From assembly GCA_964595645.1 (NCBI GenBank), contig CAZQQT010000005.1, forward strand, positions 1 to 64,000: 64,000 nt of DNA, in the 5' to 3' direction. A program made the translations under genes and the position numbers. Below the pieces are notes generated by a model, which was not told where the DNA came from, made no database searches, and saw only the letters and a list, made by a program, of their open reading frames with translations. The DNA is from an uncultured Thermococci archaeon. Its GTDB lineage: Archaea > Methanobacteriota_B > Thermococci > Methanofastidiosales > B48-G16. Every line of letters begins with the position of its first letter. Within the stretch, counting starts at the first letter, position 1. Positions 8,083 to 42,850 of the stretch are shown one piece after another.

Positions 8083-9852
8083 TTATTCACTCCTTGAAAA
8101 CGTGAGTGTAAAAGTGGTGCCTTCTTCCTCTGCAGATTCCCCCCCTATACTCCACCCATGTGCCTCCACAATTCTTTTCACAATGGAGAGACCTATACCG
8201 AATCCGTCTGTAGAGTAGCCCATATCAAAAATCTTATCGAGATGTTCTTCTGGGATACCCTTCCCGTTATCCTTCACGGAAATTACGGATGCGTCTTCTC
8301 CTTGTTCAGCGGTTAGTTCCACACGGGTAGCTTCGCCATGGATAACAGCATTTTCAATGAGGTTATGAAACATTTCTTTTAATCGTTGAGGATCGCCTTC
8401 AATTATAGGGAGATCTTCCCATTTCACTGCGAGGTCATGATTCTCACTTACTTCTTCGAGCAGTTTGTTGAGATCCACCTTTTCTGGCTTGCCTATCGCT
8501 TTCCCGGCATCGGCGAGTTCCAGCTGTCTCGATACGAATTTTTCCATTTTCTCCGTGATACCCACGATTTTTTTTGCATTGGTTTCGGCTGTTTCCTCTT
8601 TCATGAGTGATAACTGTGCTCTATTTTTGATTATATTGATGTAATTCTTCAGATCATGGGAGACAGTATGCGCAAACTCTGAGAGTTCTTCTTTCTGTTT
8701 TTTGAGAGCTTCTTCTGTCTCTTTACGCTCGGTGATCTCCTGCACAGCGCCCAACGCACGGACAACATTTCCCTGCTCATCGAACTCCCTCTCTGCTTTT
8801 TCTCGAACCCACTTCACTTCATCTCCCACAACAATACGATGATCTATATTGGAAGGTTCTCCCTGAAGAGCTGCCTTCCATTTGTTGTCAACATACTCTC
8901 TATCATCGGGGTGAACACACTCCAAAAAGTCCTCGTAGGTAAGTTCTGTGTCCAGGGGAATGCCGAAGATGCGGTAGACCTCATCCGTCCACATAAGTTT
9001 ATTATTTTTTACGTCCAATTCCCATGTACCAATTTTTCCGATTTCTTGGGCCTTTTCAAGGTGATTCTGCTTTTGTTTTAATTCCTGTTCTGCCTTTTTC
9101 CTTTTGGTGATATCCAAAATCTGTGCTACTGTTTTTGGCTTTCCTTCCGGGTCTTTGATTACGCTGGATCTAACTTCCACTCGTCTTTTCTCACCATCTT
9201 TCCGAATAATATTAAACTCGTATCTCGAAGGAACGTTTTCTCCCCTTTGTCTTCGACGATACCGATCTGTCACAAGTTGCGTGCTCGCTTCGTCGAGAAA
9301 CTCTCGAAAGTCATGGTCGATGATCTCATCACGAGGATAGCCCAGTATTTCGCATAACGTGTCATTCACATAAGTGAGCGTGTAATTTTCGTCTATGATG
9401 AGAATTCCACTATGAGCGTTTTCCACGATGGAACGATATTTTTGTTCACTTTCCCGCAGTTCCTCTTCCATCTTTTTTCTTTCACTGATGTCTCTGTATA
9501 TCGCAAAAATGCCTACATGTTCACCATCGACAACCACAGGGGCACCCAGTATAGACACGAACAGTTCTTTCCCCTCCTTCGTTTTTCTTACTGAGTCAAA
9601 ATGCACTACTTCCCCGTTCATCACACGGGATGTACATCGTTTTCCTTCTTCTATTAACTTTTCGGGGATAATAAAGTCATCGATATCTTTTCCTTTCAGA
9701 TCATTGTAGTCGAACATCTCTTTAAAGGTAGAATTTGTGGTGACTACTCGATGGTTTTTGTCCATTAATACAATCCCCTCAGGAATAGTCTCAAGCACTG
9801 CTTCAAAGTACTTTTCACTGCCCCCTTTTTTGGGACTTTTTCTTTCATACAT
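8083..9852 (-). CDS. multi-PAS sensor histidine kinase (cytoplasmic)
   Basis: Three PAS/PAC repeats, H-box SHDLKN, N-box NLIENA, DNGKGI and GIGLSIV G-boxes. Confidence 0.93.
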   Translation of the reverse strand: MYERKSPKKGGSEKYFEAVLETIPEGIVLMDKNHRVVTTNSTFKEMFDYNDLKGKDIDDFIIPEKLIEEGKRCTSRVMNGEVVHFDSVRKTKEGKELFVSILGAPVVVDGEHVGIFAIYRDISERKKMEEELRESEQKYRSIVENAHSGILIIDENYTLTYVNDTLCEILGYPRDEIIDHDFREFLDEASTQLVTDRYRRRQRGENVPSRYEFNIIRKDGEKRRVEVRSSVIKDPEGKPKTVAQILDITKRKKAEQELKQKQNHLEKAQEIGKIGTWELDVKNNKLMWTDEVYRIFGIPLDTELTYEDFLECVHPDDREYVDNKWKAALQGEPSNIDHRIVVGDEVKWVREKAEREFDEQGNVVRALGAVQEITERKETEEALKKQKEELSEFAHTVSHDLKNYINIIKNRAQLSLMKEETAETNAKKIVGITEKMEKFVSRQLELADAGKAIGKPEKVDLNKLLEEVSENHDLAVKWEDLPIIEGDPQRLKEMFHNLIENAVIHGEATRVELTAEQGEDASVISVKDNGKGIPEEHLDKIFDMGYSTDGFGIGLSIVKRIVEAHGWSIGGESAEEEGTTFTLTFSRSE

Positions 9853-10223: not shown

Positions 10224-11138
10224 TTAAAAATACTTCTGAAGCTTTGAAAATTCTTCTCCCAATTGTTCCCTCTTAATTAAGTAAAATCCAAAAAATATCA
10301 CGACGAATCCGACTACAGTGTACAGCTCTACATCCTCATCCAGTAAGAGCCATCCTGTCAGTGCCGCGAACAGTGGAGCAACATATGACACCAAATTGAT
10401 CTCGATAGGTCCTACCTGTTCGAGGAGATCGAAGTATATGATGAACCCTATTACACCGGAGACAATGGAGAGGTATAACACAGGGATCATGGCGTCTATC
10501 GTCCAGTGGATCGATGCAATGGGTTCAGATCTGAATAGACTAATTACCGTCATTAACATAGCCCCTACAATCATCGCCCAGGAGATGAATGTTTCTTTTG
10601 GAAGTGCAGAGTCTGATCGTTTCACCAGCACGCTTCCTAGAGCAAAGGAGGCAGCGGCCAGAAAGATCAGTCCCTTGGCCAGAACGGCCCCTGAAAGAAG
10701 ATGGGAAGGATCAGGTCGGGCGATAATAATGATTCCCAGTAATCCGAGAGTTACTCCAAGAAATCCACGTACTGTTAACCGTTCCTGAGGGAGGAGGGCT
10801 CGGGCAAATGCCGTGGTAAGTAAAGGACTTAAACTTACAATGACTGCGGCAACTGCACTGGTTGTAGAAAGTTCTCCAATGTAGAGAAATGCGTGGTAGG
10901 CGGCAAACATTAATGATCCACTTATAAGCACTGTGAGTATCTCATCTCTCTCTTTTGGGCACCATCTTCCCGTGACGTAGAGGGCATAAAGAAGCATAAT
11001 AAAGCCAGCGATATAGTAACGAATGGCAGCATAGAACACCGGTGGGAAGATCGCTAAGCCTGCTTTAATGGCCATAAAGGAAACTCCCCACATGGCCGCA
11101 AGTGAAACAAACGAGATGACATCTCGGTATTGTGACAT
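10224..11138 (-). CDS. EamA/DMT family transporter
   Basis: 304 aa, ~10 TM, WGVSF start motif, duplicated EamA domains. Confidence 0.9.
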   Translation of the reverse strand: MSQYRDVISFVSLAAMWGVSFMAIKAGLAIFPPVFYAAIRYYIAGFIMLLYALYVTGRWCPKERDEILTVLISGSLMFAAYHAFLYIGELSTTSAVAAVIVSLSPLLTTAFARALLPQERLTVRGFLGVTLGLLGIIIIARPDPSHLLSGAVLAKGLIFLAAASFALGSVLVKRSDSALPKETFISWAMIVGAMLMTVISLFRSEPIASIHWTIDAMIPVLYLSIVSGVIGFIIYFDLLEQVGPIEINLVSYVAPLFAALTGWLLLDEDVELYTVVGFVVIFFGFYLIKREQLGEEFSKLQKYF

Positions 11139-11360
11139 ACGAGATCTTCTTGGGATCTGTATTAAACGTTTGGTACGCTACCACGCTCTAAACCATTTTG
11201 GATACTTTCTCATTTCACATCTGACTTTTATGGTTCTGCGTGGAATAGAGTGAGTATACGATGGAAGATCGGGGGAGTATAGTAAGCATTTTTATTTTTC
11301 TGTTGGGAGAGTTTTGTTTTTATTACATTTTATGCAAATTTACTTTTTTTACCAGTAATG

Positions 11361-11397
11361 AAATAGATTTAAATACTTCGGAAGGGAAAAAAATATA
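11361..11397 (+). promoter_or_regulatory. TATA promoter of the 11398 gene containing a putative crRNA-like target (ACT + TCGGAAGGGA)
   Basis: TTTAAATA at 11368-11375, 22 nt before the ATG. 11378-11387 is identical to the 10 nt that follow the solitary repeat on the minus strand. Confidence 0.6.
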
Positions 11398-11733
11398 ATG
11401 CTCTCCAAACAACGAATAGTACAGCTTGTGGGCATGACAGGGATTCTTCTTTCAATCGTGTACTATACGGTCATCGTCTCTTTTGTTAGTCATGGTGTCT
11501 TTACGAATGTGTCTACGTCAGAACTGTTCCAAATTCTCACTGGATTTTTCATCATGCTCTTCCTTAACCTCATTTTTGGTGTGTACTATATCTCACAGTA
11601 TGAGATCGTGAAAAAAATGGAAAGAAAGCTCCCAAAAATCGTGTCTGAGGTTAATCCTGATCTTTCGAGGGAGGAAAGAGAGGAGTATGCACAAAAAATA
11701 GCCTTAAAACTTCAGGAAATAATAAAAAAATGA
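11398..11733 (+). CDS. small 2-TM membrane protein with charged C-terminal tail (candidate CRISPR-repressed toxin or effector)
   Basis: 111-aa ORF with two hydrophobic helices and a TATA box upstream; function is inferred from context only. Confidence 0.75.
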   Translation: MLSKQRIVQLVGMTGILLSIVYYTVIVSFVSHGVFTNVSTSELFQILTGFFIMLFLNLIFGVYYISQYEIVKKMERKLPKIVSEVNPDLSREEREEYAQKIALKLQEIIKK

Positions 11734-11743
11734 TCCCTTCCGA

Positions 11744-11773
11744 ATTTCAATACTATTCTAGTTAAATGAAGAC
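11744..11773 (-). CRISPR. solitary perfect CRISPR repeat (crRNA-like unit)
   Basis: Exact copy of GTCTTCATTTAACTAGAATAGTATTGAAAT, 1.49 kb from array 1, followed on the minus strand by TCGGAAGGGATCA and T7. Confidence 0.95.
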
Positions 11774-11861
11774 TCATCCATCTCTTATCCTTCTTCATCG
11801 GTGTATGTGTCATCACTGGATCTACATCTGCTACCATAATCGCACCGTCATATACAGTTCT

Positions 11862-11890
11862 ACTTCAATGTTTAAATCATTTTCTAAGAC
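11862..11890 (-). repeat. possible degenerate CRISPR repeat (psi-repeat)
   Basis: GTCTTAGAAAATGATTTAAACATTGAAGT keeps the 5' GTCTT and the 3' ATTGAA-T of the consensus; same orientation, 88 nt upstream of the solitary repeat. Confidence 0.45.
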
Positions 11891-12536
11891 AAGGTTGGAC
11901 ATTCACACAATGTTCTACAAACAAAAAGATTGTCGAAGGCAATTTTAAAACACATTGAATTCTCCCCCAGGCTTACACTACCGTTTTATTAATATTTTTC
12001 TGCTTTATAATATACGCCGCTTGTAAGCGGGTAATGCGCGGGCGAACAGTTCGTAAACGTAAATGGAATTGTTTGACAATTGGGCTCTGAACACTCCTTC
12101 GTAACATCAAAATGTAAATGATACGTAATCGCACCTGATTTCCCACTCAATCCTACTGTATCTCCTGTATTTTTGTGATTGATCTATGTCTGTGAATAAA
12201 TCGGTATATGCGATATGGAGAATCTGAAGAAACTTATTTAAGTAGGGAGGATATTGGATAGAAGTGAACTCATGGAGGTAACGGGAGGATATTTAAAAAT
12301 AAGGTGAGAGATGAGAAGAGTAATAACAAGTGAGTTTCAGAACTCTCGCTCCCTGCACTTCTCGGTGCTATCGCACTACGTAACAACAAATGCACGACCT
12401 CGCTACACCTCGCTCAAATTCGCTGTCGATAGCTCCTTCTATCCACGAAACTTTATATCAAATGATGAGTTTAGAGATGATGAAGATGCCGTCCGTAAAC
12501 TTTATAATGAAGCTGTGATAACACTATAGTGATACT

Positions 12537-12776
12537 ATGTCTTCAATAAATGTGAAAATTCCAGAACGGTTGAAGGATGAGATAGATGATTACATCAAGG
12601 ATCATCCGTACTACCTCAGTAAGAGTGAACTGGTTCGAGATGCTATCCGCCATCTAATCCACAAAGAGCGTCGATTATCAGGAGAGGCCTTGAGAGTCAT
12701 AGCTGAGGGGAAGGAGCAGATAAAAAAAGATGAAGGAAAGACCCTCGCCGAAGTGAGGAAAGAATTGGATGGTTGA
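12537..12776 (+). CDS. ribbon-helix-helix (CopG/ParD-like) antitoxin
   Basis: INVKIP...YLSKSELVRDAIRHLI; overlaps the downstream toxin gene. Confidence 0.88.
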   Translation: MSSINVKIPERLKDEIDDYIKDHPYYLSKSELVRDAIRHLIHKERRLSGEALRVIAEGKEQIKKDEGKTLAEVRKELDG

Positions 12777-13026
12777 GATTTATTTTACTAATCCAGCGAA
12801 GGACCAGCTCGCCGACTTGGAGAAAAAAGTAAGGTTGAGAATATACTCAAAGTTAGAGGAAATAAAAGACTGGCCCGATCATTTTCTGAGACCATTGACA
12901 GGTTATCCTTATTTCCGTCTTCGAGTGGGGGAGTATAGAGTAATAATCGACTGGTATAAAGAGAGAGATCAACTATGGGTAGTAGCTGTAGGGCACAGGA
13001 AAAACATCTATGAAAACAATTTTTAA
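12769..13026 (+). CDS. relE: RelE/ParE family toxin
   Basis: FRLRVGEYRVI...VAVGHRKNIY motifs. Confidence 0.92.
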   Translation: MVEIYFTNPAKDQLADLEKKVRLRIYSKLEEIKDWPDHFLRPLTGYPYFRLRVGEYRVIIDWYKERDQLWVVAVGHRKNIYENNF

Positions 13027-13262
13027 GGAAGGTACACCATGACAACTTTATAGAAGCCTCTTCTCTCATTACCTACATTTTCGTCTTCAAGACAAAATAA
13101 CAGCGTCTATCTGGTTTTCCTCCTGAGTTCACTAATTGTCTTCGGCGAACTTCTTTTATCTGCGAAACGTTAGAAAAATAAAACAACAATCGTTCACTAT
13201 CAAATCCTTCTTAACTCAATAACGACTGGGACCTCACCTCTTTTTTTCTTTTTGGACCCCGA

Positions 13263-14551
13263 ATTTCAATACTATTCTAGTTAAATGAAGACAAACTTAT
13301 ATATGAAAGAAAAGGAAATATCATCTTCATTTCAATACTATTCTAGTTAAATGAAGACTAGAAGAAACGCGTACTCTCTATAAACATGACTTTTATTTCA
13401 ATACTATTCTAGTTAAATGAAGACGAAGTACAGCTAGAGTTTGAAGATGTAAATAGTCAAATTTCAATACTATTCTAGTTAAATGAAGACTAGGAAAAAA
13501 AATAAATCACCAAGTTATGTTTGCATATTTCAATACTATTCTAGTTAAATGAAGACAAGAAAGAAATAACCACCTTTCTGAATCACATCATTATTTCAAT
13601 ACTATTCTAGTTAAATGAAGACAAATTTTACCGTTGTCATATTATCACCTAAGATGCCATTTCAATACTATTCTAGTTAAATGAAGACGGAGTTCGAACC
13701 ATACAAAGAACTCATCGATGGAATATTTCAATACTATTCTAGTTAAATGAAGACATATCTCCTGGCTCCAGTTCCCGACATCTGTCTGCAATTTCAATAC
13801 TATTCTAGTTAAATGAAGACTGGAGAGATGAAATGACAAAGTTTATGATGCAATTATTTCAATACTATTCTAGTTAAATGAAGACCAACACCTGGCAACA
13901 CTTTTTGATGAAGGGCGAGTTCATTTCAATACTATTCTAGTTAAATGAAGACTCTACATAATTCTTTGTCGCCGCATCCTGTGCACTAGATTTCAATACT
14001 ATTCTAGTTAAATGAAGACTTGCATTATATCTGTTGCAATATTATCAGGAGTATCAATTTCAATACTATTCTAGTTAAATGAAGACAAAGTGAAAACTTA
14101 GTAAATATTTTCTTTGAAAATTATTTCAATACTATTCTAGTTAAATGAAGACTTGGTGGAGCAGGAGAATATGATACAGCCTTTGAAGATTTCAATACTA
14201 TTCTAGTTAAATGAAGACGTAGCACAAGAAAAATAGGCCCTAGTTTTGTCGCCAATTTCAATACTATTCTAGTTAAATGAAGACACGACAGGAAGCACAG
14301 CGGGCAGGACGGGTGATGCAATTTCAATACTATTCTAGTTAAATGAAGACGCGTGCTCTGGAATACTTTTTTTGAAGATAAAGATCATTTCAATACTATT
14401 CTAGTTAAATGAAGACGACTTTCTTGGGTTGCTCGCCGAGGAGTTAGAGATGGATTTCAATACTATTCTAGTTAAATGAAGACTCGAAAGGGATTCTACG
14501 AGATCCTCAATTACATAGCTGATTTCAATACTATTCTAGTTAAATGAAGAC
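13263..14551 (-). CRISPR. CRISPR array 1: 20 identical 30-nt repeats, 19 spacers (35-38 nt)
   Basis: ATTTCAATACTATTCTAGTTAAATGAAGAC repeated on the + strand. Orientation from the ATTGAAAT 3' handle and the leader on the right. Confidence 0.99.
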
Positions 14552-14666: not shown

Positions 14667-15677
14667 TCATTTCGATTTTTTAGAGTTGAACATCCAGATT
14701 CCGTAATCTCCGATTACTATTTCTCCACCATAATTTTCTGGATTGAATGTTTTCCCCTCTTCAACTGTTGTATTGGAAGAGTTTTTAAGAACAAATTCAG
14801 ATCCGGGTACCAAACCGATACCGCCAAAGGAAGTGTGGTGTCCTACCCCTCCGTCTTTTCCCCATTCTCTTCCCACTAATGGTTCTAAGTCACCTTTCAT
14901 AGAGGTAACCTTTCCAAAATGTTCTTTCCCATTCTCCTCTTTTATTAACAGATGCGAAAGCGTAATGAGTGCTTCTTTTCCAATTTCGATTGTCGGACGA
15001 TCCGTATCTAGATCCACGTTGATCTTGTCGAATATTCGTACTTCCCCCTCTTGTTCAGTTTCATACGGGTTATTGAACAACTCTATTCTTCCATACCCAT
15101 AATTTCGTTCCCCGCCAACTTGTAACGTCGAGGTGCTCTCGAACAGATCATCAATCACACATTTTTCATTCTCAAAAATCTCTATTCTGTCACCATTTTT
15201 TCTCACTGAGTACTTCTCTTCCTCCCCCTCCTTGACGAGTAGATACCCTACGAGTGTAACCTTTTTATTCTCAATGTTGTGTTGCAGAAGCTCTATCTCG
15301 TGGAGACTTCCATCTTCTGCTGTCCCCGATGTTTTTTCTACTGCTGTAGAAACGTAGGAAGTGATATATTTACTCTCAAACGTTGATTGTTCCTTATTTC
15401 CATATTTGATTCCCTCTTCCGTGTAGATTGGATATAGAGCATTTTTATTCTCTAGAATGAAAAAGTAGCTAAAGATCAGGTTTTTCCTGACCAGATCTTT
15501 CAACGCTTTATAATTGGGATTCTCGATGGTCCGTCCAAGCTTCGCTGTCACTGCCCCCCACATGGTCTTTCCGGGGATGTAGTACCGCGTTCTGTCCACA
15601 ATGCCAAGTCTTGCACCATAGCCTATGTGGATAGGAGAGTTCACCCTGTATGTTAGCTCATAGGCCTTCCAGCTCAT
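14667..15677 (-). CDS. cmr3: type III-C Cas5-group RAMP Cmr3
   Basis: SPIHIG, YIPGKTMWGA, G-rich loop VGGERNYGYG; last gene of the cmr1-6-10-4-5-3 operon. Confidence 0.82.
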   Translation of the reverse strand: MSWKAYELTYRVNSPIHIGYGARLGIVDRTRYYIPGKTMWGAVTAKLGRTIENPNYKALKDLVRKNLIFSYFFILENKNALYPIYTEEGIKYGNKEQSTFESKYITSYVSTAVEKTSGTAEDGSLHEIELLQHNIENKKVTLVGYLLVKEGEEEKYSVRKNGDRIEIFENEKCVIDDLFESTSTLQVGGERNYGYGRIELFNNPYETEQEGEVRIFDKINVDLDTDRPTIEIGKEALITLSHLLIKEENGKEHFGKVTSMKGDLEPLVGREWGKDGGVGHHTSFGGIGLVPGSEFVLKNSSNTTVEEGKTFNPENYGGEIVIGDYGIWMFNSKKSK

Positions 15678-15678
15678 C

Positions 15679-16065
15679 TCAATCACTCAATGCCTTCGCA
15701 TGATATCTTGCGTAGATGAGTGTTTTTTCTATCAGAGCCTTTGCAAAGAGGAGAGTAGTGATGTCGTCTGCGAGAGATTTTATACTCTCCAACTCGTATT
15801 CTATTTTTTTATCTATAATCTCATCCAATAGGCTTATTGTCTCCTTTCCAATGGTGTCTTCGTTCTCCGATTTTAAATATACATAAAATGCAAAAACGCC
15901 ATTTTCTTGCAACACTCCTAAAGATTTGTTTATAGTATTCTCTATCTTCTTGGCTTTCTCTTTTCGTTTCTCCTCATTGGAGATATCTTTCACGTCTTCG
16001 AGCATTTTTATCGCATGTGAAAAACATTCTTTGTCCACATTCTTTTGTGTCATCTCACTCACCAT
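15679..16065 (-). CDS. cmr5: type III small subunit Cmr5 (Cas11)
   Basis: Small helical protein with LGVLQENGVFAF and LIYARYHAKAL; lies between cmr4 and cmr3. Confidence 0.82.
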   Translation of the reverse strand: MVSEMTQKNVDKECFSHAIKMLEDVKDISNEEKRKEKAKKIENTINKSLGVLQENGVFAFYVYLKSENEDTIGKETISLLDEIIDKKIEYELESIKSLADDITTLLFAKALIEKTLIYARYHAKALSD

Positions 16066-17077
16066 TGTTCGCATTGAGGATCTTAAACCGTCCGAATCCA
16101 CGGGTGCTCATGCCACCTACCCCGAGCGTTTCAAACAGCTCCAATCCTTTCCGCACTGTTTTTGTTGTCATATCAACGTCCATATTTTTATCATCTATTT
16201 TTTCTGAGATATCCGGGAAATTCGCAGGGTTCAGGAACGTGACGGTAAACGACAAGATCGTTCCCCGGGGGATCGCTTCATAGGTGAACAGTGCTTTTTC
16301 CTCCGCCGCACCCGTCTCTGGATCAATGGAAACGGAGGTTCTCACCTCGAGGTTTGAATTCACGATCTGTGCGAACAAACTGTCTGAGACGACTGCCAGA
16401 CGTTGGAGTACCTCATCTATCTTTGGGAGCTCTTTCAACTTTTTTCCGTTCTCCTTTTCGTTGTACTTCCACTTTTCAGGTTGTACATTAGAATTTTCTA
16501 TAGCTTCAAGATAGATCCATCCAAGATTTATTTTTCCCTCAGCTATCCGTTCATTTAGATCATCACAGAGCCACACTTTCTCTCTTATACCGTTGCCGTT
16601 TTTTGACGATAGCTCTTTTTTCAGTTGTTTCATACTATTTTTAGTTTCAAAATTTTCTATTAGCGATGGACATGTCGCCCAGACAGGCCCGATCATTGTA
16701 TGCACCGGGAAGAACAAGATTTGTGCGTCAGAGAACTGTGCCATGCCATGGAGTGACTTTTCCCTCGTTGAAAATCCATAGGTGATGCAGATCTCACAGT
16801 TACCGCACTGTTTTGTTCCCTTCTCCTCATTACTTTTCCCTGCACAATTGAGATATTCTTCTTTCTTCTCCTTTATTGATTCATTGTCGTTAATTAAACT
16901 ATAGGCAGAATATGTCCTTGCTGTCCCCTCGATACTGGATCCAAAGACTATTGGCAAATTCGTTGCAGGATCTCGTGCTATCGTATTGTCCACCCGTCCC
17001 AGCCGGTACCCACCGGTCCCGATATGTATAGGATCTAACGCCATTGCAAACTTTTTTTCTTCGTACGGCTTACTCAT
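16055..17077 (-). CDS. cmr4: type III backbone RNase Cmr4
   Basis: DPIHIGTG, GRVDNTIARD (catalytic Asp position), LFTYEAIPRG, GVGGMSTRGFG. Confidence 0.93.
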   Translation of the reverse strand: MSKPYEEKKFAMALDPIHIGTGGYRLGRVDNTIARDPATNLPIVFGSSIEGTARTYSAYSLINDNESIKEKKEEYLNCAGKSNEEKGTKQCGNCEICITYGFSTREKSLHGMAQFSDAQILFFPVHTMIGPVWATCPSLIENFETKNSMKQLKKELSSKNGNGIREKVWLCDDLNERIAEGKINLGWIYLEAIENSNVQPEKWKYNEKENGKKLKELPKIDEVLQRLAVVSDSLFAQIVNSNLEVRTSVSIDPETGAAEEKALFTYEAIPRGTILSFTVTFLNPANFPDISEKIDDKNMDVDMTTKTVRKGLELFETLGVGGMSTRGFGRFKILNANNGE

Positions 17078-20000
17078 TTCTTCTCATCTCCTAATTTCTC
17101 TTTTAAAATCGTGTGGTACAGCTCCTTCACATCGAAAAACATCCCTGACAGCACGGAGCTGTAGATTAGCTTGAACTCTTTACTTTCTTCACTTTCTTTA
17201 TCTTCTTTTTTATCCTCAATATCCAAAATATTTTTTATAGAGAATTTTATCAGCTCTTGAAACTCTTTATACTCTTTATTCTCCTCTAATTCTTCTAATT
17301 CCAACTGCCAGTCCTCTATTTTCCCGAGGAGGAGCGATTCGAAGTTATTCAACTGAGTGTTGTCAACATTGCAGTTTTGCAGTGTCTCCCATACCTCGAT
17401 GATCGTCTCGATCTCCTCGAGGTAGTATGGCCTCGGCCCTTTCTTTTTGAAGATGGGATGCGGCCGTGTGCCGGCAACGATATCGAACCGTCTTGTGTTG
17501 GAGTCCAGGAACTGGAAGTCGAAATGATTAGTAAAGACCTGTATTTTATCTCCTTCCTTAATCTTGTTGATATGTACGCTCTTTTCTCCATTTAAAAGGA
17601 AGTAGGGGTAATAAAAATCAGTAATTTCTCCATTTCCCAGCTTATTTCGAATCTTCCAAGCTATCTCCTTATTACCTATTTTCAGTGAAATTAATTTGCT
17701 TTCATTACAATTTTGCATATTGGAAATTTTTGTTTTCTCTTTTTCTAGTTCATCAAATATATCAATGAATCTTCTTCCAGAATCGAGTATTGAAAATGTA
17801 GGTGTCTTTTTTTTAGAGTAAATGCATCCAATGTTAAGGGATATCTTACCTAGCGATTTAGTAAATTTTGATTTGAAATCCTCTTTAATAGACTCAATTA
17901 ATTTGAAAGAGCTATTTGCAGGAATTAAAAACATAAAACTCGTGGGAGAAGAAATTATTTCTCTAAATTGTTTAAAATCAACGAACCTGAATTTTTTAAT
18001 TTCGTACTTTTTTTTCTCATTCTCATTTTTAATCTCGATAGTTTTTCCTTTAAAATTTATTTTTGATATTCCCACATGTGATTTTAGATAGTCTTTTTGT
18101 TTGACATCAGATGGATTCCTTTTATCAATTCGTTCTATGGTGAAAAATTCCTTCCCGTCAAAGAACACCTCGATCGTTCCAATATCAGGTATTTCAGCCT
18201 CGTATATCTTTCCTTCTTCAAGATCATGCACTATTTGAAAAATTAACCGTTTACCCTTTGGAACTATATTTCTACTCTTTTCTATCTGTCCCCGCGAAAA
18301 ATTTTGAAGTTCTCTCCAGGTTCTGTATAGTCGAGCTGGTGAAGGTGGTTTTGTTTCTATAGCATCTAAAATTTTCTCTTCTCCAATATCCGATCCAATT
18401 CTATAGTAAAACTCTCCTACTTTGCTTTTAGCTCCAATAAAAGTGGATTCTTTATCATTGAGTTTATCAAGTTCTCTCACTTTATTTTTAAATACTCTTT
18501 CACCCTGCACGGTGTTGGGATCCGTTTCTGATAACAATTTGGCAAACTTTGCAATAGCATTATCTTTAATATTGTTATACTCTTCTTCTGAGATATTGTT
18601 AAAATGTCTCCTAGCGAAAGGGTGCTCTTCCAGATCTTTCTTAGTTCTAATTTTTTGATATTTCAAGAATTTTCCGCTTAACCATTCTTTTAACGGTTCA
18701 AATCTTCCTGTAATTAAAGCTATTTTTCCATTGCTATCTGCGAGTTCATCTATCCATCTTGTTCCTCCTTCTCTATTTTTTTCCTTATCAGTTCCTCTCT
18801 TTTTTCTTGTTTCCCAACAAAATCTACATAGATAATCACTTTCTTTTCCTTTCCACTGGGGCATTTTTCCACAGAGAATACATTTGTCTTTATTTTTTAT
18901 TCCATTCCACGTTTTAATCCATTTAGGAGTGAAATTAGGTGGGGTTTCAATAGACTTTCGTCTTGCCTCTTTTTCACCTTTTTTCCTTAAGTTAGTTAAC
19001 TCCACCCCATAATACTTTAAATCGCATGATCTGTTTGTTATTGGAATAACTAATCCCATCGTTTTATCATTGAAAATATTATCTTGGATATATCTCTTAA
19101 GGTAATTAAAAGAATCGTTTTTAATTGGAGGAACTAAAAAACATAGGTGATTTTCATCTTTATAAATGCAGTTCCCAAGCGGATAATCTACTTCAAGTAA
19201 ATTTTTGATCTCTTTTCTAACTTCGTTCATGATTGCTTTCCTTCCACTCACATCCAAAAGGTTTTCCCCTTGAGAAATAAAGTTGATACTGTCGAAGGAG
19301 ACAATCAATAAATTTAAGTCCATAGGATCTTCAAAATGATGAGTGTTTCTATCAGGTTCAAATTCTGATATTAATCTATCGTTTAAAATACATTTTGAAA
19401 CAATAGATTTTGAGATGGTACCAGTCATGAAACCGTGATCAAAAAGGGTTACATCATTGCTTGAACGATAGGTACTGGCAACTCCTTCTTTGAAAACTCC
19501 AACTGCCTTTACTATCTTTTCATGAAAATTGTTCCAGTCCACATTCTCTTTAATCTTTTCTTGAGAATCAACAATCAAAGTTTTTGAAAATAAGGCATCT
19601 AAGTTATTATATACTCCCTCTCTTTTTTCATTGAATTTCTCTTTTTTAAGCTTTTTTTCATTCCCAAAAACGGATGCTACAAATTCCTCTTGCATAGCGA
19701 TTGCTTTTCCTCTATCCTCTGAACTATCTTTCTTGTCCGCCAGATTTATTATTTCTTCTACCCAATTCTGAGGCCAATATTCTACATTTCTAGGATTGCC
19801 TTCACTATTCCACTTCCGATGGTGTCTTTGAAATCCTTTAACTTTAATTTCGCGATTTTTTACTTTTTCTAGAATATTCTCCGATATCTTGCTATTGAGC
19901 AATCTTTCAAAATCTGCATTAAATAATTTAATTATTCTCCGTGGAACGTTTACGTGAGTTCTACCATTCTCTTCTTCGCGTTCCTCTGTAAATTTCACAT

Positions 20001-20154
20001 CGCCGTCATATCTTTTATAGTGGCATTTGTGAAGTTCAGAAGATAGTTTTCCAATATCATGCAAAAATCCCATCAATTCAACCAATAAAATTAATGCTCG
20101 ATTATCTTGCAACTTTTTTAGTTCGTTTGGGATATTCTTACTCTCTGTATTCAT
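17074..20154 (-). CDS. cas10: type III-C Cas10 (Csx11/MTH326-like): HD domain, Zn finger, degenerate palm
   Basis: LHDIGK, HH and LADKKDS HD motifs; CILC...CRFC; SPARLYRTW; no GGDD (SSPTSF at the expected position). Confidence 0.88.
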   Translation of the reverse strand: MNTESKNIPNELKKLQDNRALILLVELMGFLHDIGKLSSELHKCHYKRYDGDVKFTEEREEENGRTHVNVPRRIIKLFNADFERLLNSKISENILEKVKNREIKVKGFQRHHRKWNSEGNPRNVEYWPQNWVEEIINLADKKDSSEDRGKAIAMQEEFVASVFGNEKKLKKEKFNEKREGVYNNLDALFSKTLIVDSQEKIKENVDWNNFHEKIVKAVGVFKEGVASTYRSSNDVTLFDHGFMTGTISKSIVSKCILNDRLISEFEPDRNTHHFEDPMDLNLLIVSFDSINFISQGENLLDVSGRKAIMNEVRKEIKNLLEVDYPLGNCIYKDENHLCFLVPPIKNDSFNYLKRYIQDNIFNDKTMGLVIPITNRSCDLKYYGVELTNLRKKGEKEARRKSIETPPNFTPKWIKTWNGIKNKDKCILCGKMPQWKGKESDYLCRFCWETRKKRGTDKEKNREGGTRWIDELADSNGKIALITGRFEPLKEWLSGKFLKYQKIRTKKDLEEHPFARRHFNNISEEEYNNIKDNAIAKFAKLLSETDPNTVQGERVFKNKVRELDKLNDKESTFIGAKSKVGEFYYRIGSDIGEEKILDAIETKPPSPARLYRTWRELQNFSRGQIEKSRNIVPKGKRLIFQIVHDLEEGKIYEAEIPDIGTIEVFFDGKEFFTIERIDKRNPSDVKQKDYLKSHVGISKINFKGKTIEIKNENEKKKYEIKKFRFVDFKQFREIISSPTSFMFLIPANSSFKLIESIKEDFKSKFTKSLGKISLNIGCIYSKKKTPTFSILDSGRRFIDIFDELEKEKTKISNMQNCNESKLISLKIGNKEIAWKIRNKLGNGEITDFYYPYFLLNGEKSVHINKIKEGDKIQVFTNHFDFQFLDSNTRRFDIVAGTRPHPIFKKKGPRPYYLEEIETIIEVWETLQNCNVDNTQLNNFESLLLGKIEDWQLELEELEENKEYKEFQELIKFSIKNILDIEDKKEDKESEESKEFKLIYSSVLSGMFFDVKELYHTILKEKLGDEKK

Positions 20155-21265
20155 CTTCCAGAATCTCCTCCAGCATTTTGCAGAAGTCTTTCCCGTAATC
20201 ATTACCATTTACATTAATGTTCTCTATCTCTGCCACGCCATACCCACTACTTGTTTTTGCTCCAAATCCGTATTTTGTAAGCATGTCGAAAACAGCGTTC
20301 ACGATGATGAGAATATCTTCATTCTTTTCTTCTTTGATTTTTTTCTCCTTATCTCTTAAAATATCGAAGGGGAAATAGAGCAAGTAAAATTCGCCTTTCA
20401 TTTTTTCTCCATCTTTTTCTTCAGGAACTGTTTCGAGTGTGATGGGAACAGTGCCTGTTTTTGTCTTCCTGTCATGAGGGTTAATTACATCGAGATCCAT
20501 TGAGTTGAAAAATGTGGGGTAGGTACGCAACCGTCCTCTTCTCGGTAGACTATCTCTGGAATAGCTATCAAACTCCTTTCCAAGTTCGTCTGCTTTTTTT
20601 CCAACTTTTTTACCTATAGATCGATTGAGCCAATGGCTCACATTCTCTTTCTCATCACCAAAGAGTTTCAGAAGTCTCATTCTTCTTTCCTTCCAGTTCA
20701 CTGATTTTTCATCATCATCCAAATCTTCTAAGAATTGTTTTGATGCGGCCCACCGTAGATTACCTTTCCACGACGATGCCTTGATATATGGGACTTTGAA
20801 GATCTTTTCTTTCGTCACAGGATTCTCGTGGAGATAGAACTCTTCATCCTCCTTACTCAGAAACGGTTTTGTGAGGGTGAATTTGATGTGGAGGAGAGAT
20901 GAATAGGGGAGGGTTTCCGGATCGTATTTTGGTTCTGCAATTGTTTCAAAAACTTTTGATTTATAATTCTCTCCTTCCTTCAACGCCCAGTCCTCGTTCA
21001 TCGTATACACAGCGTCTTTCTTCAAATCTAGGATATACTCATTGTACCCCACCTTTAAAAGATTTTTATTATCCCTGTTACTGTTTTCATAGAACCTTAC
21101 AAATAATGAAATTTCTTTTAATCGAGAGTACCAATTAGAAGAAAAATTATTTTCGAAGAAAGTGAGGAGTTCCTCTCTCACTTTATCTTCTTTTATCCTA
21201 TCTAATTTATTTTTTAATTTTCCAATTTTCTCATCCCACAACGCAGCATAGAAATCGTAGGTCAT
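20138..21265 (-). CDS. cmr6: type III RAMP Cmr6
   Basis: PYIKASSWKG, LDVINPH, GFGAKTSSGYG. Confidence 0.9.
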   Translation of the reverse strand: MTYDFYAALWDEKIGKLKNKLDRIKEDKVREELLTFFENNFSSNWYSRLKEISLFVRFYENSNRDNKNLLKVGYNEYILDLKKDAVYTMNEDWALKEGENYKSKVFETIAEPKYDPETLPYSSLLHIKFTLTKPFLSKEDEEFYLHENPVTKEKIFKVPYIKASSWKGNLRWAASKQFLEDLDDDEKSVNWKERRMRLLKLFGDEKENVSHWLNRSIGKKVGKKADELGKEFDSYSRDSLPRRGRLRTYPTFFNSMDLDVINPHDRKTKTGTVPITLETVPEEKDGEKMKGEFYLLYFPFDILRDKEKKIKEEKNEDILIIVNAVFDMLTKYGFGAKTSSGYGVAEIENINVNGNDYGKDFCKMLEEILEDEYRE

Positions 21266-21266
21266 T

Positions 21267-22568
21267 CTAACACATCTCCCTAGAAACTTTTCCTCCCGAT
21301 CTAAGAATTTTCTTTGGGTCAGGATCATAAACCCATTTAATCTTGTCTATATCAACAGGACAACTATTCACATTGAAGCATTGTTTCCAAAAATTTTCAT
21401 TTTTAAGTTTCTCTTTCAATATTTTTTGAATATTTTCTCGAGAAGTATTCAATTTATTTGGAATATCTGGAATCCATCCCCATATTTTCATTTCCCATTT
21501 CGATTCTTTCTCATTACTGTAAAATTTCTTATCGTACATATGAGAAACATTGATTTTAGAAGCGACTTTCTTTAGTATTTTTTCCTCTGTAATTCCCCCC
21601 TCTTGACAATTATGACACCAATATTTCCCTCTATTCTTCCTATCATTATCAATCAAATGTTGCCAACATTTTAGGTGCACTGGCCTTGGGGTTCCTTTCA
21701 CAGAAACAAACCCCATTAAGTAATGTCTTAAGACATCATTATTAGAAAATAGTCGCCTTATGCTTCTCCTCACCCACGGTGCCGACGGGATGTAAGGATA
21801 CTTCTGTTCATGGGGCCACCTCAAACTTTCTCCAGACTTTACAGCTTTCATTGTTTTATATACATTCTTACCAATCTCACTCCTAATGGTATCTACGTGT
21901 CCATCTCTGATAGGGATTCTATAAAAGAAAAAGTGATCTATCTGTGGTAGCGGTAAAGAATAGGAGACCTTCTTGGGAAATTCTAAGAATTTGGGCAATT
22001 CTTTCTTGTAACTCTTAGGTTCTCTCTTTAAAGAGGATATCCCAAAACCTCTTTGTACGATTGCACCTAATCCCCAATCAGCAGAAAGCTGGAGAGTACA
22101 GTCGATTATACCTTCGATGTCTTCTTTCTGAGCAGTTATGTCCACTTTAAGTTTTCCAAATATCCCTCCATTTTTTTCATAGGTTCTCCCAGTATTATCA
22201 TAATATCCTAAAAAGGCTTGTTTCTTAGAACTTTTAGGTTTTGCGATTACAAATGGTGCATATGAGTATCTATCTTCTGGATTGATTTCCAGTTTAAACT
22301 TTTTTCTCCACCCTGTACATCCAAAGAGCCTGCACGCCTCGCATACATCTTTCAATCCATTCTCTACGTTTTTTGTTTCTCTATAAGCGTTATAATTAAA
22401 TTCACATTCAGAATCAGTCGGATCACACGCATACCCTCCCAATCCCCTAACAAGAGCCTCGTACCACCACCGCAGAGACCCGATGATACCAGTCTCTTTT
22501 ATCTTTGTGCATTTCCCCTCAATGTCTCCTGTCCAAAGAGGGGTTAATGTCTTAAGGTGGATCTCCAT
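21267..22568 (-). CDS. cmr1: type III RAMP Cmr1
   Basis: LKTLTPLWTG, GIIGSLRWWYEAL, CEACRLFG, GLGAIVQRGFG. Confidence 0.92.
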   Translation of the reverse strand: MEIHLKTLTPLWTGDIEGKCTKIKETGIIGSLRWWYEALVRGLGGYACDPTDSECEFNYNAYRETKNVENGLKDVCEACRLFGCTGWRKKFKLEINPEDRYSYAPFVIAKPKSSKKQAFLGYYDNTGRTYEKNGGIFGKLKVDITAQKEDIEGIIDCTLQLSADWGLGAIVQRGFGISSLKREPKSYKKELPKFLEFPKKVSYSLPLPQIDHFFFYRIPIRDGHVDTIRSEIGKNVYKTMKAVKSGESLRWPHEQKYPYIPSAPWVRRSIRRLFSNNDVLRHYLMGFVSVKGTPRPVHLKCWQHLIDNDRKNRGKYWCHNCQEGGITEEKILKKVASKINVSHMYDKKFYSNEKESKWEMKIWGWIPDIPNKLNTSRENIQKILKEKLKNENFWKQCFNVNSCPVDIDKIKWVYDPDPKKILRSGGKVSREMC

Positions 22569-22709
22569 TAGATCACATACAACATAGGGAATCATCCTTT
22601 ATAAGGTTTACTAATTTTTTTGTTTCTTTCATTTCTGACTTTTCTTTTAGTGACACCCGTATACTCTGCACTCAGAGTACAAAAAGAAAATTGAACTGAG
22701 AGAACTTTT

Positions 22710-29722: not shown

Positions 29723-30868
29723 CTATAATTCTAAATTATTCACGTCGATTCCAATGTTAGCTATACACTTTTCTAGTTCTTCTCCTTCGGACAGATCAAA
29801 ACTAAGACTGGTATCATACTTCAACTCAACTCTTTTAATGTTATCTTTGTTTTCCTCTAGCGATTCCATCAGTTTATCTATATTCAAAATGTAGCCATCA
29901 ACACTTCTGATACTTTTTTGTTCTTCTTCATTCAACGGCTCACCATTTTTCCCAACCATCTTGATTTTTTTGTCCAAGTCCCCAATATGGTAGTTATCCT
30001 CATCATACACAACCCTTATCAACAATCTTGGGACTTGCCCCACTTTAGAACGGGTAATGAGATTCTTTGTTCCGTTCCAGATTCCATCCATTAGTAGATC
30101 TATATCTTCCTCAGTTAGCCCTGTATATCTAGCTGCATTTTCATTAACTATTCCATAAAATCCGATCAAAGAATATGGGAGTCTATATTCCTCGGAAAAT
30201 TCCGCCTGTTTTTTACCTTTTTCTCTTCCTCGTCCCGGTTCTACGGGCATAGTTATTGAACCTTTGTAAAAATCATAGTCAACTTTATGTAGTGACCTAC
30301 CGAACTTGAATTGTACTGGTCCTGTCTGCTGCACTTGTATATTTCGAACGGCCAATGTCGATCCAAACAATCTCAAGTCTATGAATTTATCAAAGACTTT
30401 TTCTTTGATTACGGTGGTTCTAAGTTCTTCAAATCTCTCATAAATCTCTTTTTTCTCTTCATCACCTCTTTCTTCAACTAAACATCCTAAAAACATCTTT
30501 TTTCTATCGTTAGCACTACTCTCTGTTAATATGGAATGAATTTTTTTCCCAAGATGCTCCTTCTCTTTGTCCTCTAATTCCTCTTCCGCAAGAAGTTCTA
30601 TTAGTTCTTCCTCTAGTTTACGACCTCTAGATTTTATAAGCTCTTCACCTTCTTCGACCACTTTTTCACTCTGAATGAATATATTTTGGTCTTTAAAATC
30701 TCTTAAGTAATCCCGTATTGTCCTTTTCAATCTCACATCAGTAACAATGTTCAAATCTGTTTGCTGGTCGATTCTAGGTTTGTCTTCATCTAACGGATCT
30801 CCATTTGGATTTGCATCACTCACATCATACAGAAATACTATCTCTGACCTATTTTTTATTTCACTCAT
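29723..30868 (-). CDS. cas7: type I-B Cas7b (Csh2) with a helical insertion
   Basis: ANPNGDP, VTDVRLKRTIRDY, DLRLFG, TGPVQF, TRSKVGQ. Confidence 0.95.
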   Translation of the reverse strand: MSEIKNRSEIVFLYDVSDANPNGDPLDEDKPRIDQQTDLNIVTDVRLKRTIRDYLRDFKDQNIFIQSEKVVEEGEELIKSRGRKLEEELIELLAEEELEDKEKEHLGKKIHSILTESSANDRKKMFLGCLVEERGDEEKKEIYERFEELRTTVIKEKVFDKFIDLRLFGSTLAVRNIQVQQTGPVQFKFGRSLHKVDYDFYKGSITMPVEPGRGREKGKKQAEFSEEYRLPYSLIGFYGIVNENAARYTGLTEEDIDLLMDGIWNGTKNLITRSKVGQVPRLLIRVVYDEDNYHIGDLDKKIKMVGKNGEPLNEEEQKSIRSVDGYILNIDKLMESLEENKDNIKRVELKYDTSLSFDLSEGEELEKCIANIGIDVNNLEL

Positions 30869-32753
30869 TTTTTTCACCTTCTACATCCTTTTCCTTCTTC
30901 TCTTTTCTTTTGAATACTCTTCCTAGGTTCAGCCCCAAAGCAAAATAATAGCTAATTTCATTCTTGTTGATGCCCCATCCATCGTTATCCGCAGCTATGA
31001 AATATTGAGAAATCATCTCTTCTAACCATGAGTAATAAGGAGCTTCATATTGTCTTAATTTTTCTGTGATCTCTGGGAACAGATTCTTGATTTTTGATTC
31101 GTCTAACCTCAATCCCCTTAACTTAGATCTAAATGGGGTAGAGTTCCTTTCTCGACTCTGTATGTCCAATAGAAACTTAGTCAGGACCCCTTCTAGAAAT
31201 ACTGCCTTTTTCGCGTTGGTATCGAAAGCTTTAGAGAAATCATCGAAAAAATTCTCTATTCTATTTTCGTTTTTATTAATTTTTTTCTTTATCTCGCTTT
31301 TTTTATTCATACAACCATCACCCCTTAGCAGTTCTAAACTTTTTATCATATCTAACACATACAATGATTTTAAAGCCAATAGCCTTTCATTCCATTCTTC
31401 TTTGACATGACTATATCTTAACTCTCTTACAAACGCTTCAATCAAAACATTTTCCTGAAATTTTTGTTTTGATAAAATATTCCCGATTACATCTAAGAAT
31501 TCCTTATCATGATTTCCAGTATTTTCAGAATCAGGAAAAAAAGTTCTAAGCATCCCCCCAAAAGACATGTATCCAGGATTATTCCCCTTATAGGTACCTC
31601 CTTTAAAACTCCCTACCCATTTATCACCAAAAATGATTTGCAGATTATCTTCTTCAAATATCTCTTTAGAGGTTGTGTTTTTAAAAACATCGATTATTTC
31701 TTTGATCCACGAAGGGGGCACATCTTCTATGTATTTTAAAATGTCAAAATTTTTTCCACCTTGTTTTACTTCGTAAAATACGAAGATTAAGTTTACTACA
31801 CCCTCATTGTTTCGCATATAATATAATATATCATCTTCTTCTGTTAGTAATGATCCCTGGTAATCCTTTTCTTTCAAATTTATAATATCTTCCATTATCT
31901 CTTTTTCTATGCCTCCGAATAAAAATTTGGGTATTACATAAAATCTATAACCATAGAAACGTTTAGAAAGATGCTCATCCATAAAATTTCTTCCTGCCAC
32001 AAGTGTGAGTGTGCATTCTGAACAGATGGGCAACTGTTTCCAAGAATCTACAACATTCAAACTCTGAGCAAAACCTTTTGGATTAACCGTATAAAATGAA
32101 AAAGGCTCTCTAGGCCTTGAAACTTCTTTTTCTTCACCACAAAGGTAACATACCCCCTCTTCTAAAGGCACATCGGGTACCCAGAATTCACTCATGCCTT
32201 CTTCCTTTAAGATACTATTAAATATTTCAAGATCTCCAATATGTTTTTGACCCCCATCCGTTTGAAAGGTAATAGTCAGTAAAGAATTTTTCTTAGAATC
32301 CGATTCAAAAGATTTGAATTTCTGTTTCACATCCGATAATATGTTCTCTTCAATTTCTTTTTCTTCCGTTAGTTTCTCTTTAAGATTTTTAATAAAGTCG
32401 TTAGAAAGATATTTATCAAATTTTCTGAACCAGTATGCTACCCTCCATGAGGTTTTTTCCAAAGTACTAATTTTGTCTGTCGGGGTAATTCTAAATCTAT
32501 GGGAGGGATGATCACGATAAAGATACTTAGTTAATTTTGAAGTATCATAATCCTCGATATGCACACCAGCGTAATCTAACTTACCATTTTCTAAATTAAA
32601 ATCTATGCATATTACTTTTGCATTTCCCTCCTCAATTACTCTTTTGTTAAGTGGCTGATCCACTATTATATTCAACGGTTCAAGGTTCTTATGATCAATT
32701 GCAAATTCTCCTATCTCTTTTACTTCCTTTAACATTTTACTTTTCATCCCCAT
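30861..32753 (-). CDS. cas8b: type I-B Cas8b (Csh1)
   Basis: CYLC...PICSEC Zn finger, FYVIP, C-terminal Cas11-like region (FLEGVL...YYFALG); upstream of cas7. Confidence 0.9.
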   Translation of the reverse strand: MGMKSKMLKEVKEIGEFAIDHKNLEPLNIIVDQPLNKRVIEEGNAKVICIDFNLENGKLDYAGVHIEDYDTSKLTKYLYRDHPSHRFRITPTDKISTLEKTSWRVAYWFRKFDKYLSNDFIKNLKEKLTEEKEIEENILSDVKQKFKSFESDSKKNSLLTITFQTDGGQKHIGDLEIFNSILKEEGMSEFWVPDVPLEEGVCYLCGEEKEVSRPREPFSFYTVNPKGFAQSLNVVDSWKQLPICSECTLTLVAGRNFMDEHLSKRFYGYRFYVIPKFLFGGIEKEIMEDIINLKEKDYQGSLLTEEDDILYYMRNNEGVVNLIFVFYEVKQGGKNFDILKYIEDVPPSWIKEIIDVFKNTTSKEIFEEDNLQIIFGDKWVGSFKGGTYKGNNPGYMSFGGMLRTFFPDSENTGNHDKEFLDVIGNILSKQKFQENVLIEAFVRELRYSHVKEEWNERLLALKSLYVLDMIKSLELLRGDGCMNKKSEIKKKINKNENRIENFFDDFSKAFDTNAKKAVFLEGVLTKFLLDIQSRERNSTPFRSKLRGLRLDESKIKNLFPEITEKLRQYEAPYYSWLEEMISQYFIAADNDGWGINKNEISYYFALGLNLGRVFKRKEKKEKDVEGEKNE

Positions 32754-41600: not shown

Positions 41601-42850
41601 CACTCGATGAAGAGATATTAGAAGAATTTCAATACTATTCTAGTTAAATGAAGACTTATGGCGATGCTGTATATCTTAGCGATTCTGTAGAATTTCAATA
41701 CTATTCTAGTTAAATGAAGACATAAACTATCACACAGTGAATTTGATGATAATCTTAAATTTCAATACTATTCTAGTTAAATGAAGACTTTCCCTTCCCC
41801 TTTTTGCAAGACCCCCAATTGTTCATTTCAATACTATTCTAGTTAAATGAAGACGAGCACATCATGAACCAAATATGGGATCCCAAACATCCAATTTCAA
41901 TACTATTCTAGTTAAATGAAGACATGTAGAACCAGAAATATTGGAGATAGTTGCTATTGAATTTCAATACTATTCTAGTTAAATGAAGACTCCTTTTTCC
42001 CATCACGTTACTATGTTCCTTTCCTAATTTCAATACTATTCTAGTTAAATGAAGACCTTCGAAAAATACAGCCTTTGACAATATGCCAACATATTTCAAT
42101 ACTATTCTAGTTAAATGAAGACTTTTTGTTCTTTTTCTGATTTCTTTCTTATATATACATTTCAATACTATTCTAGTTAAATGAAGACATAGTGGGGTTG
42201 ATTCTGACGATGATTCAGATTATTGATTTCAATACTATTCTAGTTAAATGAAGACAAACTCATTTATTCACCTCTTTCACTTCAACATCATCATTTCAAT
42301 ACTATTCTAGTTAAATGAAGACTACTGACCATTCCCGCATCCACCTTTACCGTTGCGGATTTCAATACTATTCTAGTTAAATGAAGACGTATTAAGGTCT
42401 TTTTAGGTTAAGGTCTTTTTAGTTATTTCAATACTATTCTAGTTAAATGAAGACTTTCGTAAACTACATAATCAAAAATTCCCGTGTATCTAATTTCAAT
42501 ACTATTCTAGTTAAATGAAGACTCAATCATCTCGGAAGCAATGAACATTCTATCTTTTATTTCAATACTATTCTAGTTAAATGAAGACCAAAAATTCTCG
42601 TAGACAAAGTATTTGTTGAAGACATTTCAATACTATTCTAGTTAAATGAAGACCATGGTGCATTATAGTAATCTACAAAACATCCATGGATTTCAATACT
42701 ATTCTAGTTAAATGAAGACACAAGAAGAAAAACTATATCAAAAAATAGGGATTTATTTCAATACTATTCTAGTTAAATGAAGACTGCTCTATCAGACAGT
42801 GAATTTGATGATAATCTTAAATTTCAATACTATTCTAGTTAAATGAAGAC
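38638..42850 (-). CRISPR. CRISPR array 2: 63 perfect repeats plus 1 degenerate trailer repeat, 63 spacers (32-40 nt)
   Basis: Same 30-nt repeat as array 1. The trailer copy keeps 21 nt (38647-38667); the leader is on the right. Confidence 0.99.

Follow-up and report, generated by a model that had tools for sequence, protein, structure and literature searches.

Repression of promoters by Cascade under the guidance of crRNA-like RNAs is established for the CreTA modules of haloarchaeal type I-B systems (PMC8501985, PMC9458426), and a protein toxin, CreP, is repressed in a type I-F system (bioRxiv 10.1101/2024.01.05.574328). Mini-arrays whose targets are cas or cargo promoters occur most often in archaeal composite loci with a type I-B component (PMC10120712), and in type I-C systems single-repeat units are found directly behind the defence genes that they repress (bioRxiv 10.1101/2024.12.27.630466). 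Here we describe a solitary CRISPR repeat whose putative guide matches the promoter of the adjacent gene in a 64,000-nucleotide stretch of DNA, hereafter the window, from an uncultured member of the class Thermococci. The window contains a composite CRISPR locus, and its source DNA comes from microbial-mat metagenomes. The features discussed below are collected in Table 1.

Table 1. Features of the solitary-repeat locus and its surroundings (positions in the window unless a contig is named)
Feature	Position	Strand	Remarks
BRE/TATA element of the 111-aa gene, GAAATAGATTTAAATA	11360-11375	plus	13.5 bits; top 0.009% of positions
ACT at the type I PAM position (5' of the protospacer, non-target strand)	11375-11377	plus	Read directly; candidate PAM
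Candidate Cascade target TCGGAAGGGA, 10-nt seed match	11378-11387	plus	At -20 to -11 of the promoter
111-aa protein gene, candidate regulated gene	11398-11733	plus	Two membrane helices and a charged C-terminal helix
T7 tract, candidate terminator of the guide RNA	11724-11730	minus	Read directly; A7 on the plus strand
Guide segment TCGGAAGGGATCA	11731-11743	minus	First 10 nt equal the promoter site; TCA is the stop-codon complement
Solitary CRISPR repeat	11744-11773	minus	30/30 against array repeats; predicted Cas6 8-nt 5' handle AUUGAAAU
Promoter-like BRE/TATA element AGAAAATGATTTAAACATTG, would drive the repeat	11866-11885	minus	13.3 bits; exceeds the training-promoter median
RHH antitoxin gene	12537-12776		
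RelE-like toxin gene	12769-13026		
Array 1	13263-14551		
Type III-C module	14667-22595		Cmr1, Cmr6, Csx11-type Cas10, Cmr4, further RAMP protein
Array 2	38638-42850		
Third array	contig C13		

The solitary repeat in its CRISPR-Cas setting

The type III-C module of the window is followed by cas1 and cas4 and then by the type I-B genes cas3 (at 26471), cas5, cas7 and cas8b, the last of the Csh1/TM1802 family (30861-32753). Together with the single cas6 gene (42952-43680), the type I-B set is complete, comprising Cas8b/Csh1, Cas7, Cas5 and Cas3. The Cas10 protein of the type III-C module (17074-20208) belongs to the Csx11 family and carries an HD motif while lacking the GGDD cyclase motif, as in type III-C, and a Pfam search of the 10 large ORFs between 14667 and 25127 revealed no CARF-type effector. 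One 30-nt repeat is common to all three arrays, each of which has a conserved leader of approximately 100 nt on its high-coordinate side; this position of the leaders, together with the minus-strand repeat end ATTGAAAT, indicates that the arrays are transcribed on the minus strand.

Two protospacers have been acquired twice, as slightly differing variants (14219-14254 and 40196-40232; 41722-41758 and 42785-42820), which points to recurrent encounters with the same elements. Within each pair the PAM-proximal end is shared and the 3' end differs by one base, confirming the array orientation. Protospacers for the 98 spacers were absent from the masked genome of the organism and from the loci of relatives, the 39 spacers of the relatives' arrays had no protospacer in the present genome, and three scans of viral contigs, with the two twice-acquired protospacers and the C7-like one, gave no matches. 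The only long spacer match links the newest, leader-proximal spacer of array 1 (14484-14521) to a chromosomal gene for a small winged-helix-like protein on contig C7 (G000:C7:59253-59290), with 30 of 38 positions identical and 23 of them consecutive. This spacer was probably derived from a mobile-element homologue of the C7 gene, and the match is too diverged for a PAM to be read from it.

The initial annotation had reported a perfect repeat outside the arrays, and we found this repeat, ATTTCAATACTATTCTAGTTAAATGAAGAC, to be identical at all 30 positions to each of the 101 array repeats. In the whole genome it is the only perfect copy beyond the three arrays. It begins 10 nt past the stop codon of a 111-aa protein gene, on the opposite strand. 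The nearest cas gene, of the type III-C module (14667), is reached after about 2.9 kb and the first effector gene of type I-B after about 15 kb, with array 1 and the toxin-antitoxin cargo in the intervening DNA. The repeat is situated neither inside nor directly beside a cas operon that it could guard, which is the position that marks an addiction module.

On the minus strand the repeat is followed, as had been described, by TCGGAAGGGA (11743-11734), TCA and a T7 tract (11730-11724), the latter being the complement of the final two Lys codons of the 111-aa gene and the preceding A. A second tract, T6, lies about 40 nt past T7, and read-through RNAs could end there at normal crRNA length. The reported recurrence of the 10-mer on the plus strand, between the TATA box and the ATG of the 111-aa gene, was likewise found, and the window contains no further exact copy. 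The match begins at guide base 1 and the two copies are 346 nt apart; beyond the 10-nt seed there are just three scattered matches among the next 10 guide positions. The adjoining ACT overlaps the final base of the TATA box. The window contains no further seed match of at least 9 nt, leaving the adjacent promoter as the sole candidate target, and its cas promoters contain no seed match of at least 7 nt, the pairing of guide with cas promoter by which CreR RNAs are recognized. Two attributes of crRNA-like regulatory RNAs are present: a repeat lies outside the arrays in a genome that encodes the matching type I effector and processing enzyme, and the guide is partly complementary, from base 1, to a promoter site.

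Promoters, repeat resemblance and the likelihood of a chance match

Throughout the genome (G000), TTTAAA and TTTATA show a sharp peak 27-30 nt before the ATG of long ORFs, indicating that many genes are leaderless. We built a promoter matrix from the genome's own leaderless promoters (n=178) and scored the region around the solitary repeat with it. The TATA box of the 111-aa gene, TTTAAATA (11368-11375), starts 30 nt before its ATG, and TTTAAAT is kept 29-30 nt before the ATG in all 17 homologues. With a leaderless promoter, the 10-mer falls at -20 to -11, between TATA box and start site. [quoted passage not shown] In CRISPRi with the Haloferax type I-B system this was the geometry that repressed best. 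ACT is one of six functional PAMs of the Haloferax system (PMC3460438), its activity as a PAM being shown for Haloferax only.

The candidate promoter of the repeat, AGAAAATGATTTAAACATTG, is about as strong as that of the 111-aa gene, is correctly oriented some 100 nt ahead of the repeat and sits in the left end of the 1.5-kb cargo. Scores as high occur at 9e-5 of genome positions, so that approximately 0.03 would be expected in the 377 nt scanned, and the predicted start at about 11847 gives a 74-nt leader before the repeat. A degenerate repeat that had been considered at 11862-11890 was absent in an ungapped genome search allowing up to 9 mismatches; the segment overlaps the best promoter-like site and was read as a promoter. 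The flank of the solitary repeat showed no similarity to the three array leaders, so that it is not a mini-array with its own leader, and an Rfam search of 11100-13300 gave no match.

We next asked how often a match of this kind arises by chance. The 10-mer TCGGAAGGGA occurs 9 times on both strands of the 1.97-Mb genome, and matches to it with up to one mismatch are no commoner in the window than in shuffled sequence. When each genome position was taken as a mock guide start and copies of its 10-mer were sought within 450 nt, an inverted copy was found for 0.14% of positions and a direct copy for 0.51%. The match is hence an event of about 1 in 700, its position within a promoter being left out of account, and this agrees with the local chance estimate of about 0.001 in the initial annotation. 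The unusual feature is the closeness of the two copies.

A further aspect of the match is that the repeat itself looks like a promoter. Its 3' half (GAATAGTATTGAAAT) resembles the BRE/TATA consensus of the lineage, and in a local alignment the promoter of the 111-aa gene and the junction of repeat and guide share 22 matches in 27 columns with two gaps. The homologues share the TATA part of the gene promoter, which marks that part as ancestral and the 10-mer alone as new. Sequence transfer between such look-alike inverted sites is a possible non-adaptive source of the match.

Degenerate copies of the repeat also occur far from cas genes, at G000:C6:79649-79678 (23 of 30 positions) and in two related genomes (L027:1489-1524 in G004 and L026:693-727 in G005). 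Each precedes TATAAA(A/G)G, and the C6 copy lies about 150 nt upstream of a gene for an Sm-like protein; these copies may be promoters rather than genes for crRNA-like RNAs. We considered the C6 copy as a second crRNA-like RNA and rejected it, the best 11-nt match of its 'guide' TATAAAGGGG elsewhere being at chance level.

The 111-aa gene family and the history of the repeat

Hydropathy analysis of the 111-aa protein revealed two hydrophobic helices followed by an extended, charged helix at the C terminus, and the predicted model has helices at residues 4-31, 40-85 and 91-110 with a mean pLDDT of 80. The protein matched no Pfam or PADLOC family, language-model and fold searches returned generic helical matches only, and a profile search of 1.8 billion representative proteins yielded just 7 relatives. 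Orthologues with 54-70% identity are present in all five other family genomes searched and in 13 metagenome contigs. The 111-aa protein is a member of a small lineage-specific family. Protein-alignment scans gave 13 metagenome and three genome loci, and the 17 homologous loci that we inspected comprise four orthologues in related genomes and the 13 metagenomic ones.

The homologues are always monocistronic and have the same type of promoter, which looks equally strong in the absence of any repeat. Their neighbours are ordinary genes for an oxidoreductase, a riboflavin kinase, a UbiA prenyltransferase, an acetyl-CoA hydrolase and PAS sensor kinases. A PAS kinase gene precedes the homologue in two metagenome contigs and also lies upstream in the window (8083-9852), and the 111-aa gene is probably at its native site. 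At none of the 17 loci did we find a CRISPR repeat downstream of the gene or the 10-mer in its promoter, and the conservation or covariation of repeat and target sought by Shmakov et al. (PMC10120712) is accordingly not seen beyond the strain level; the arrangement looks young. Since the homologues stand among ordinary genes with neither repeat nor 10-mer, these loci argue against a dedicated toxin or abortive-infection gene. The suggestion of such a function in the initial annotation is thus unsupported, there being no Pfam or PADLOC family to back it and nothing else that points to a dedicated toxin.

The T7 tract is specific to this lineage. The other homologues have ATAAAA before the stop codon, and T7 is found only here, by way of an extra Lys codon that the 17 homologues lack; the present protein ends in KK, and three aligned orthologues end in a single K.

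As to the repeat, a 34-nt unit of CCGA and repeat occurs as an identical direct repeat, once at 11740-11773 and again where array 1 now ends, at 13259-13292. These two copies bracket a 1,485-bp segment with an RHH-RelE toxin-antitoxin pair. Contigs of another mat sample match 12125-12694 at 98.8% identity, and one of them passes into unrelated sequence left of 11823, a differing junction that makes the cargo look mobile. On this sequence comparison the solitary repeat probably used to be the last repeat of array 1. In the simplest scenario the array reached to within 10 nt of the end of the gene until the cargo was inserted, apparently at the terminal repeat and with duplication of a little more than one repeat length. 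The repeat is thus likely to be of passive origin, and an RNA made from it may act today all the same.

Two further observations concern the cargo and the ends of arrays. On the minus strand at 11884-11972, a Shine-Dalgarno-like box, GGGGGAG, is followed after 8 nt by a Cys-rich ORF of 23 codons (11955-11884), and 11862-12062 is found at about 87-92% identity in contigs of another mat sample; the ORF may be a genuine small gene within the cargo. In a genome of the same genus (G001:C66; L022, minus strand 390-720), two trailer repeats are interrupted, both at one and the same internal site, by insertions of about 50 nt and about 130 nt, and the array ends in an 11-nt repeat stub. Either something inserts into repeats or repeats decay in a patterned way in this genome.

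Strain-level evidence came from a 433-nt contig of an unrelated hypersaline-lake study, which spans 11313-11745 end to end with 14 substitutions, known as a count, and two indels. One indel drops an A from the run after the 10-mer, by itself leaving the 10-mer intact and changing the distance from TATA box to ATG to 29. Promoter, gene and 12 nt past the stop codon are thus collinear in a second population, with the contig ending 2 nt into the repeat. A second mat sample gave little or no cover over 11152-11822, a gap that by itself carries no weight as evidence.

Interpretation and comparison with known systems

The reading that we tentatively prefer, at somewhat less than even confidence and with a chance match nearly as likely, is that the locus encodes a working young Cascade-guided repressor of the CreA/crlRNA kind. 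We infer that the unit is transcribed and processed, that its short guide is loaded, that ACT is accepted as a PAM and that the gene is repressed as a result. The minus-strand unit would consist of the promoter at about 11885-11866, the 74-nt leader, the perfect repeat, the 13-nt guide and T7. Cleavage of the repeat by Cas6 would leave AUUGAAAU-UCGGAAGGGAUCA-U(n), an RNA starting AUUGAAAU-UCGGAAGGGA, and read-through forms may stop at T6 about 40 nt further. This RNA would be loaded into the resident type I-B Cascade (Cas8b/Csh1, Cas7 and Cas5), guide bases 1-10 would pair with the template strand of the neighbouring promoter, beside ACT and just below the TATA box, and the bound complex would block initiation of the leaderless mRNA for the 111-aa membrane protein. 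Ten bases are too few for cleavage by Cas3, so the complex would merely sit on the promoter, and the gene would be released upon loss or inhibition of Cascade, Cas6 or the RNA.

The CRISPR-repressed toxin module originally proposed is thus partly supported. The anatomy fits a Cascade-guided repressor RNA, with Cascade and Cas6 encoded, a perfect repeat, a seed at -20 to -11 that would pair with the template strand, and a promoter-like element and a T-tract of the unit's own. The toxin part is unsupported. Some features of the unit count against repression. If T7 terminates transcription, the type I-B Cascade would need to assemble on a 13-nt guide with a U tail, and the unit is located past the trailer end of array 1 and away from the cas operons, which sets it apart from published modules.

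A nearly as probable account is that the repeat is a remnant of array 1 cut off by the 1,485-bp RHH-RelE insertion, the 10-nt identity being functionless chance and any RNA a by-product. The identical 34-nt units that bracket the apparently mobile cargo, with its 98.8% contigs and differing junction at 11823, favour this account, as do the decaying array trailer of G001 in the same genus, with insertions inside its repeats, and the lack of any link between gene and CRISPR at the 17 homologous loci. A survey of very many windows is, moreover, bound to yield some coincidences of 1 in 1000. Chance would nevertheless have to explain both that the match begins at guide base 1 and that it falls in the core of the nearest promoter. 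It would also have placed the match on the strand best suited to type I-B repression, next to a trinucleotide that is a PAM of another Csh1-type system, and the strong promoter-like site upstream and the lineage-specific T7 downstream must coincide too. A passive origin of the repeat, furthermore, does not stop an RNA from acting once it is made.

We consider it unlikely that the locus records the birth of a CRISPR-supervised gene under dual control, in which an array-end repeat has become a transcription unit with its own promoter and a new terminator, and the gene is controlled by the type I-B Cascade at its promoter and by type III-C or antisense action at the tail of its mRNA. If this were true, any gene harmful in excess could come to serve as the 'toxin' in an addiction module.

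Control at the mRNA tail without any binding to the promoter appears less likely still. Minus-strand RNA past T7 would be fully complementary to the mRNA tail and might act through convergent or antisense interference, or a Csx11-type III-C complex carrying the RNA might cut the mRNA. The repeat does begin just past the stop codon on the opposite strand, and the plus strand has no T-run of at least 5 after the stop codon, so the mRNA probably runs into the repeat; such a read-through mRNA carries the complement of the handle, and a type III-C complex would count it as 'self' and not trigger an immune response. A type III-C module (Csx11, Cmr4, Cmr6, Cmr1) is adjacent, with a common repeat type and a single Cas6, and RNAs that ran on to T6, about 40 nt beyond, would have guides of normal length. 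Against all this, T7 right after the 13th guide base should halt most archaeal transcription and leave too short an overlap, the use of such RNAs by type III-C complexes is conjectural, and the 10-nt promoter match is left wholly unexplained.

If the promoter-repressor reading is true, CRISPR-guided gene control would reach an uncultured archaeon of the class Thermococci; it would involve a perfect repeat at an array end as against a degenerate one inside a cas operon, and its target would be a native host gene as against an imported toxin or defence system. Because the 17 relatives lack the arrangement, it would, if working, be an unusually young example. It could then be used to study how such circuits arise, whether from array ends, from a truncated self-targeting spacer or by transfer between look-alike sites, and its 8-nt handle and 13-nt guide would offer a natural minimal guide bearing on the length limits of type I-B crRNAs. 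If the match is a coincidence, the locus becomes a good calibration case, a measure of the number of 'right' features that chance alone can give an array remnant.

The circuit type is already known, and the arrangement described here is seen in one strain lineage. The novelty of layout claimed at the outset is smaller than supposed, since a gene with a single repeat whose guide is directed to a site before the gene corresponds to the published type I-C CRISIS (bioRxiv 10.1101/2024.12.27.630466), and one-repeat creA genes have already been mentioned (PMC9458426). The closest likeness is to the single-repeat crlRNA units of type I-C systems (SRU; Nezha and CRISIS; bioRxiv 10.1101/2024.12.27.630466), which share the order of target, gene and repeat unit, a partly matching guide, a PAM-flanked site before the gene and a proposed repression by Cascade without cleavage. 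Type I-C units lie inside cas operons, between cargo and cas5c, and from this operon layout are taken to be co-directional with the cargo, whereas the present unit lies outside the cas genes, at an array trailer, and is convergent with its gene. RNAs of the type I-C units mostly measure 49-50 nt and have a 3' hairpin, in contrast to a guide predicted here to end at a T-tract after 13 nt, and their targets lie 37-46 bp upstream of the start site rather than at -20 to -11. The cargo of type I-C units consists of defence systems conserved in many genomes, unlike the native small membrane protein of one lineage found here.

With CreTA (PMC8501985, PMC9458426) the locus shares a Csh1-type type I-B Cascade. 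However, in place of one perfect repeat creA usually has two degenerate ones, which keep it apart from the ordinary flow of crRNAs; CreT is a small tRNA-sequestering RNA encoded between cas genes, whereas the present target codes for a 111-aa protein and lies outside the cas operon; TTC serves as the PAM, compared to the trinucleotide ACT here; and CreTA is conserved among relatives, as the present unit is not. The CreP/CreA pair of the Acinetobacter baylyi type I-F system (bioRxiv 10.1101/2024.01.05.574328) resembles the proposed circuit in that a crRNA-like RNA and the effector complex jointly repress the promoter of a protein gene. CreP is a toxic, phage-derived protein with a KilAC domain, while the 111-aa protein has no known domain or sign of phage origin and its homologues have no link to CRISPR. 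As cited in PMC10120712, finally, a type I-B CRISPR-like RNA of Haloferax volcanii, located between an array and cas genes and directed at distant targets that include zinc-transporter genes, provides a likeness in the repression of ordinary chromosomal genes by a type I-B system.
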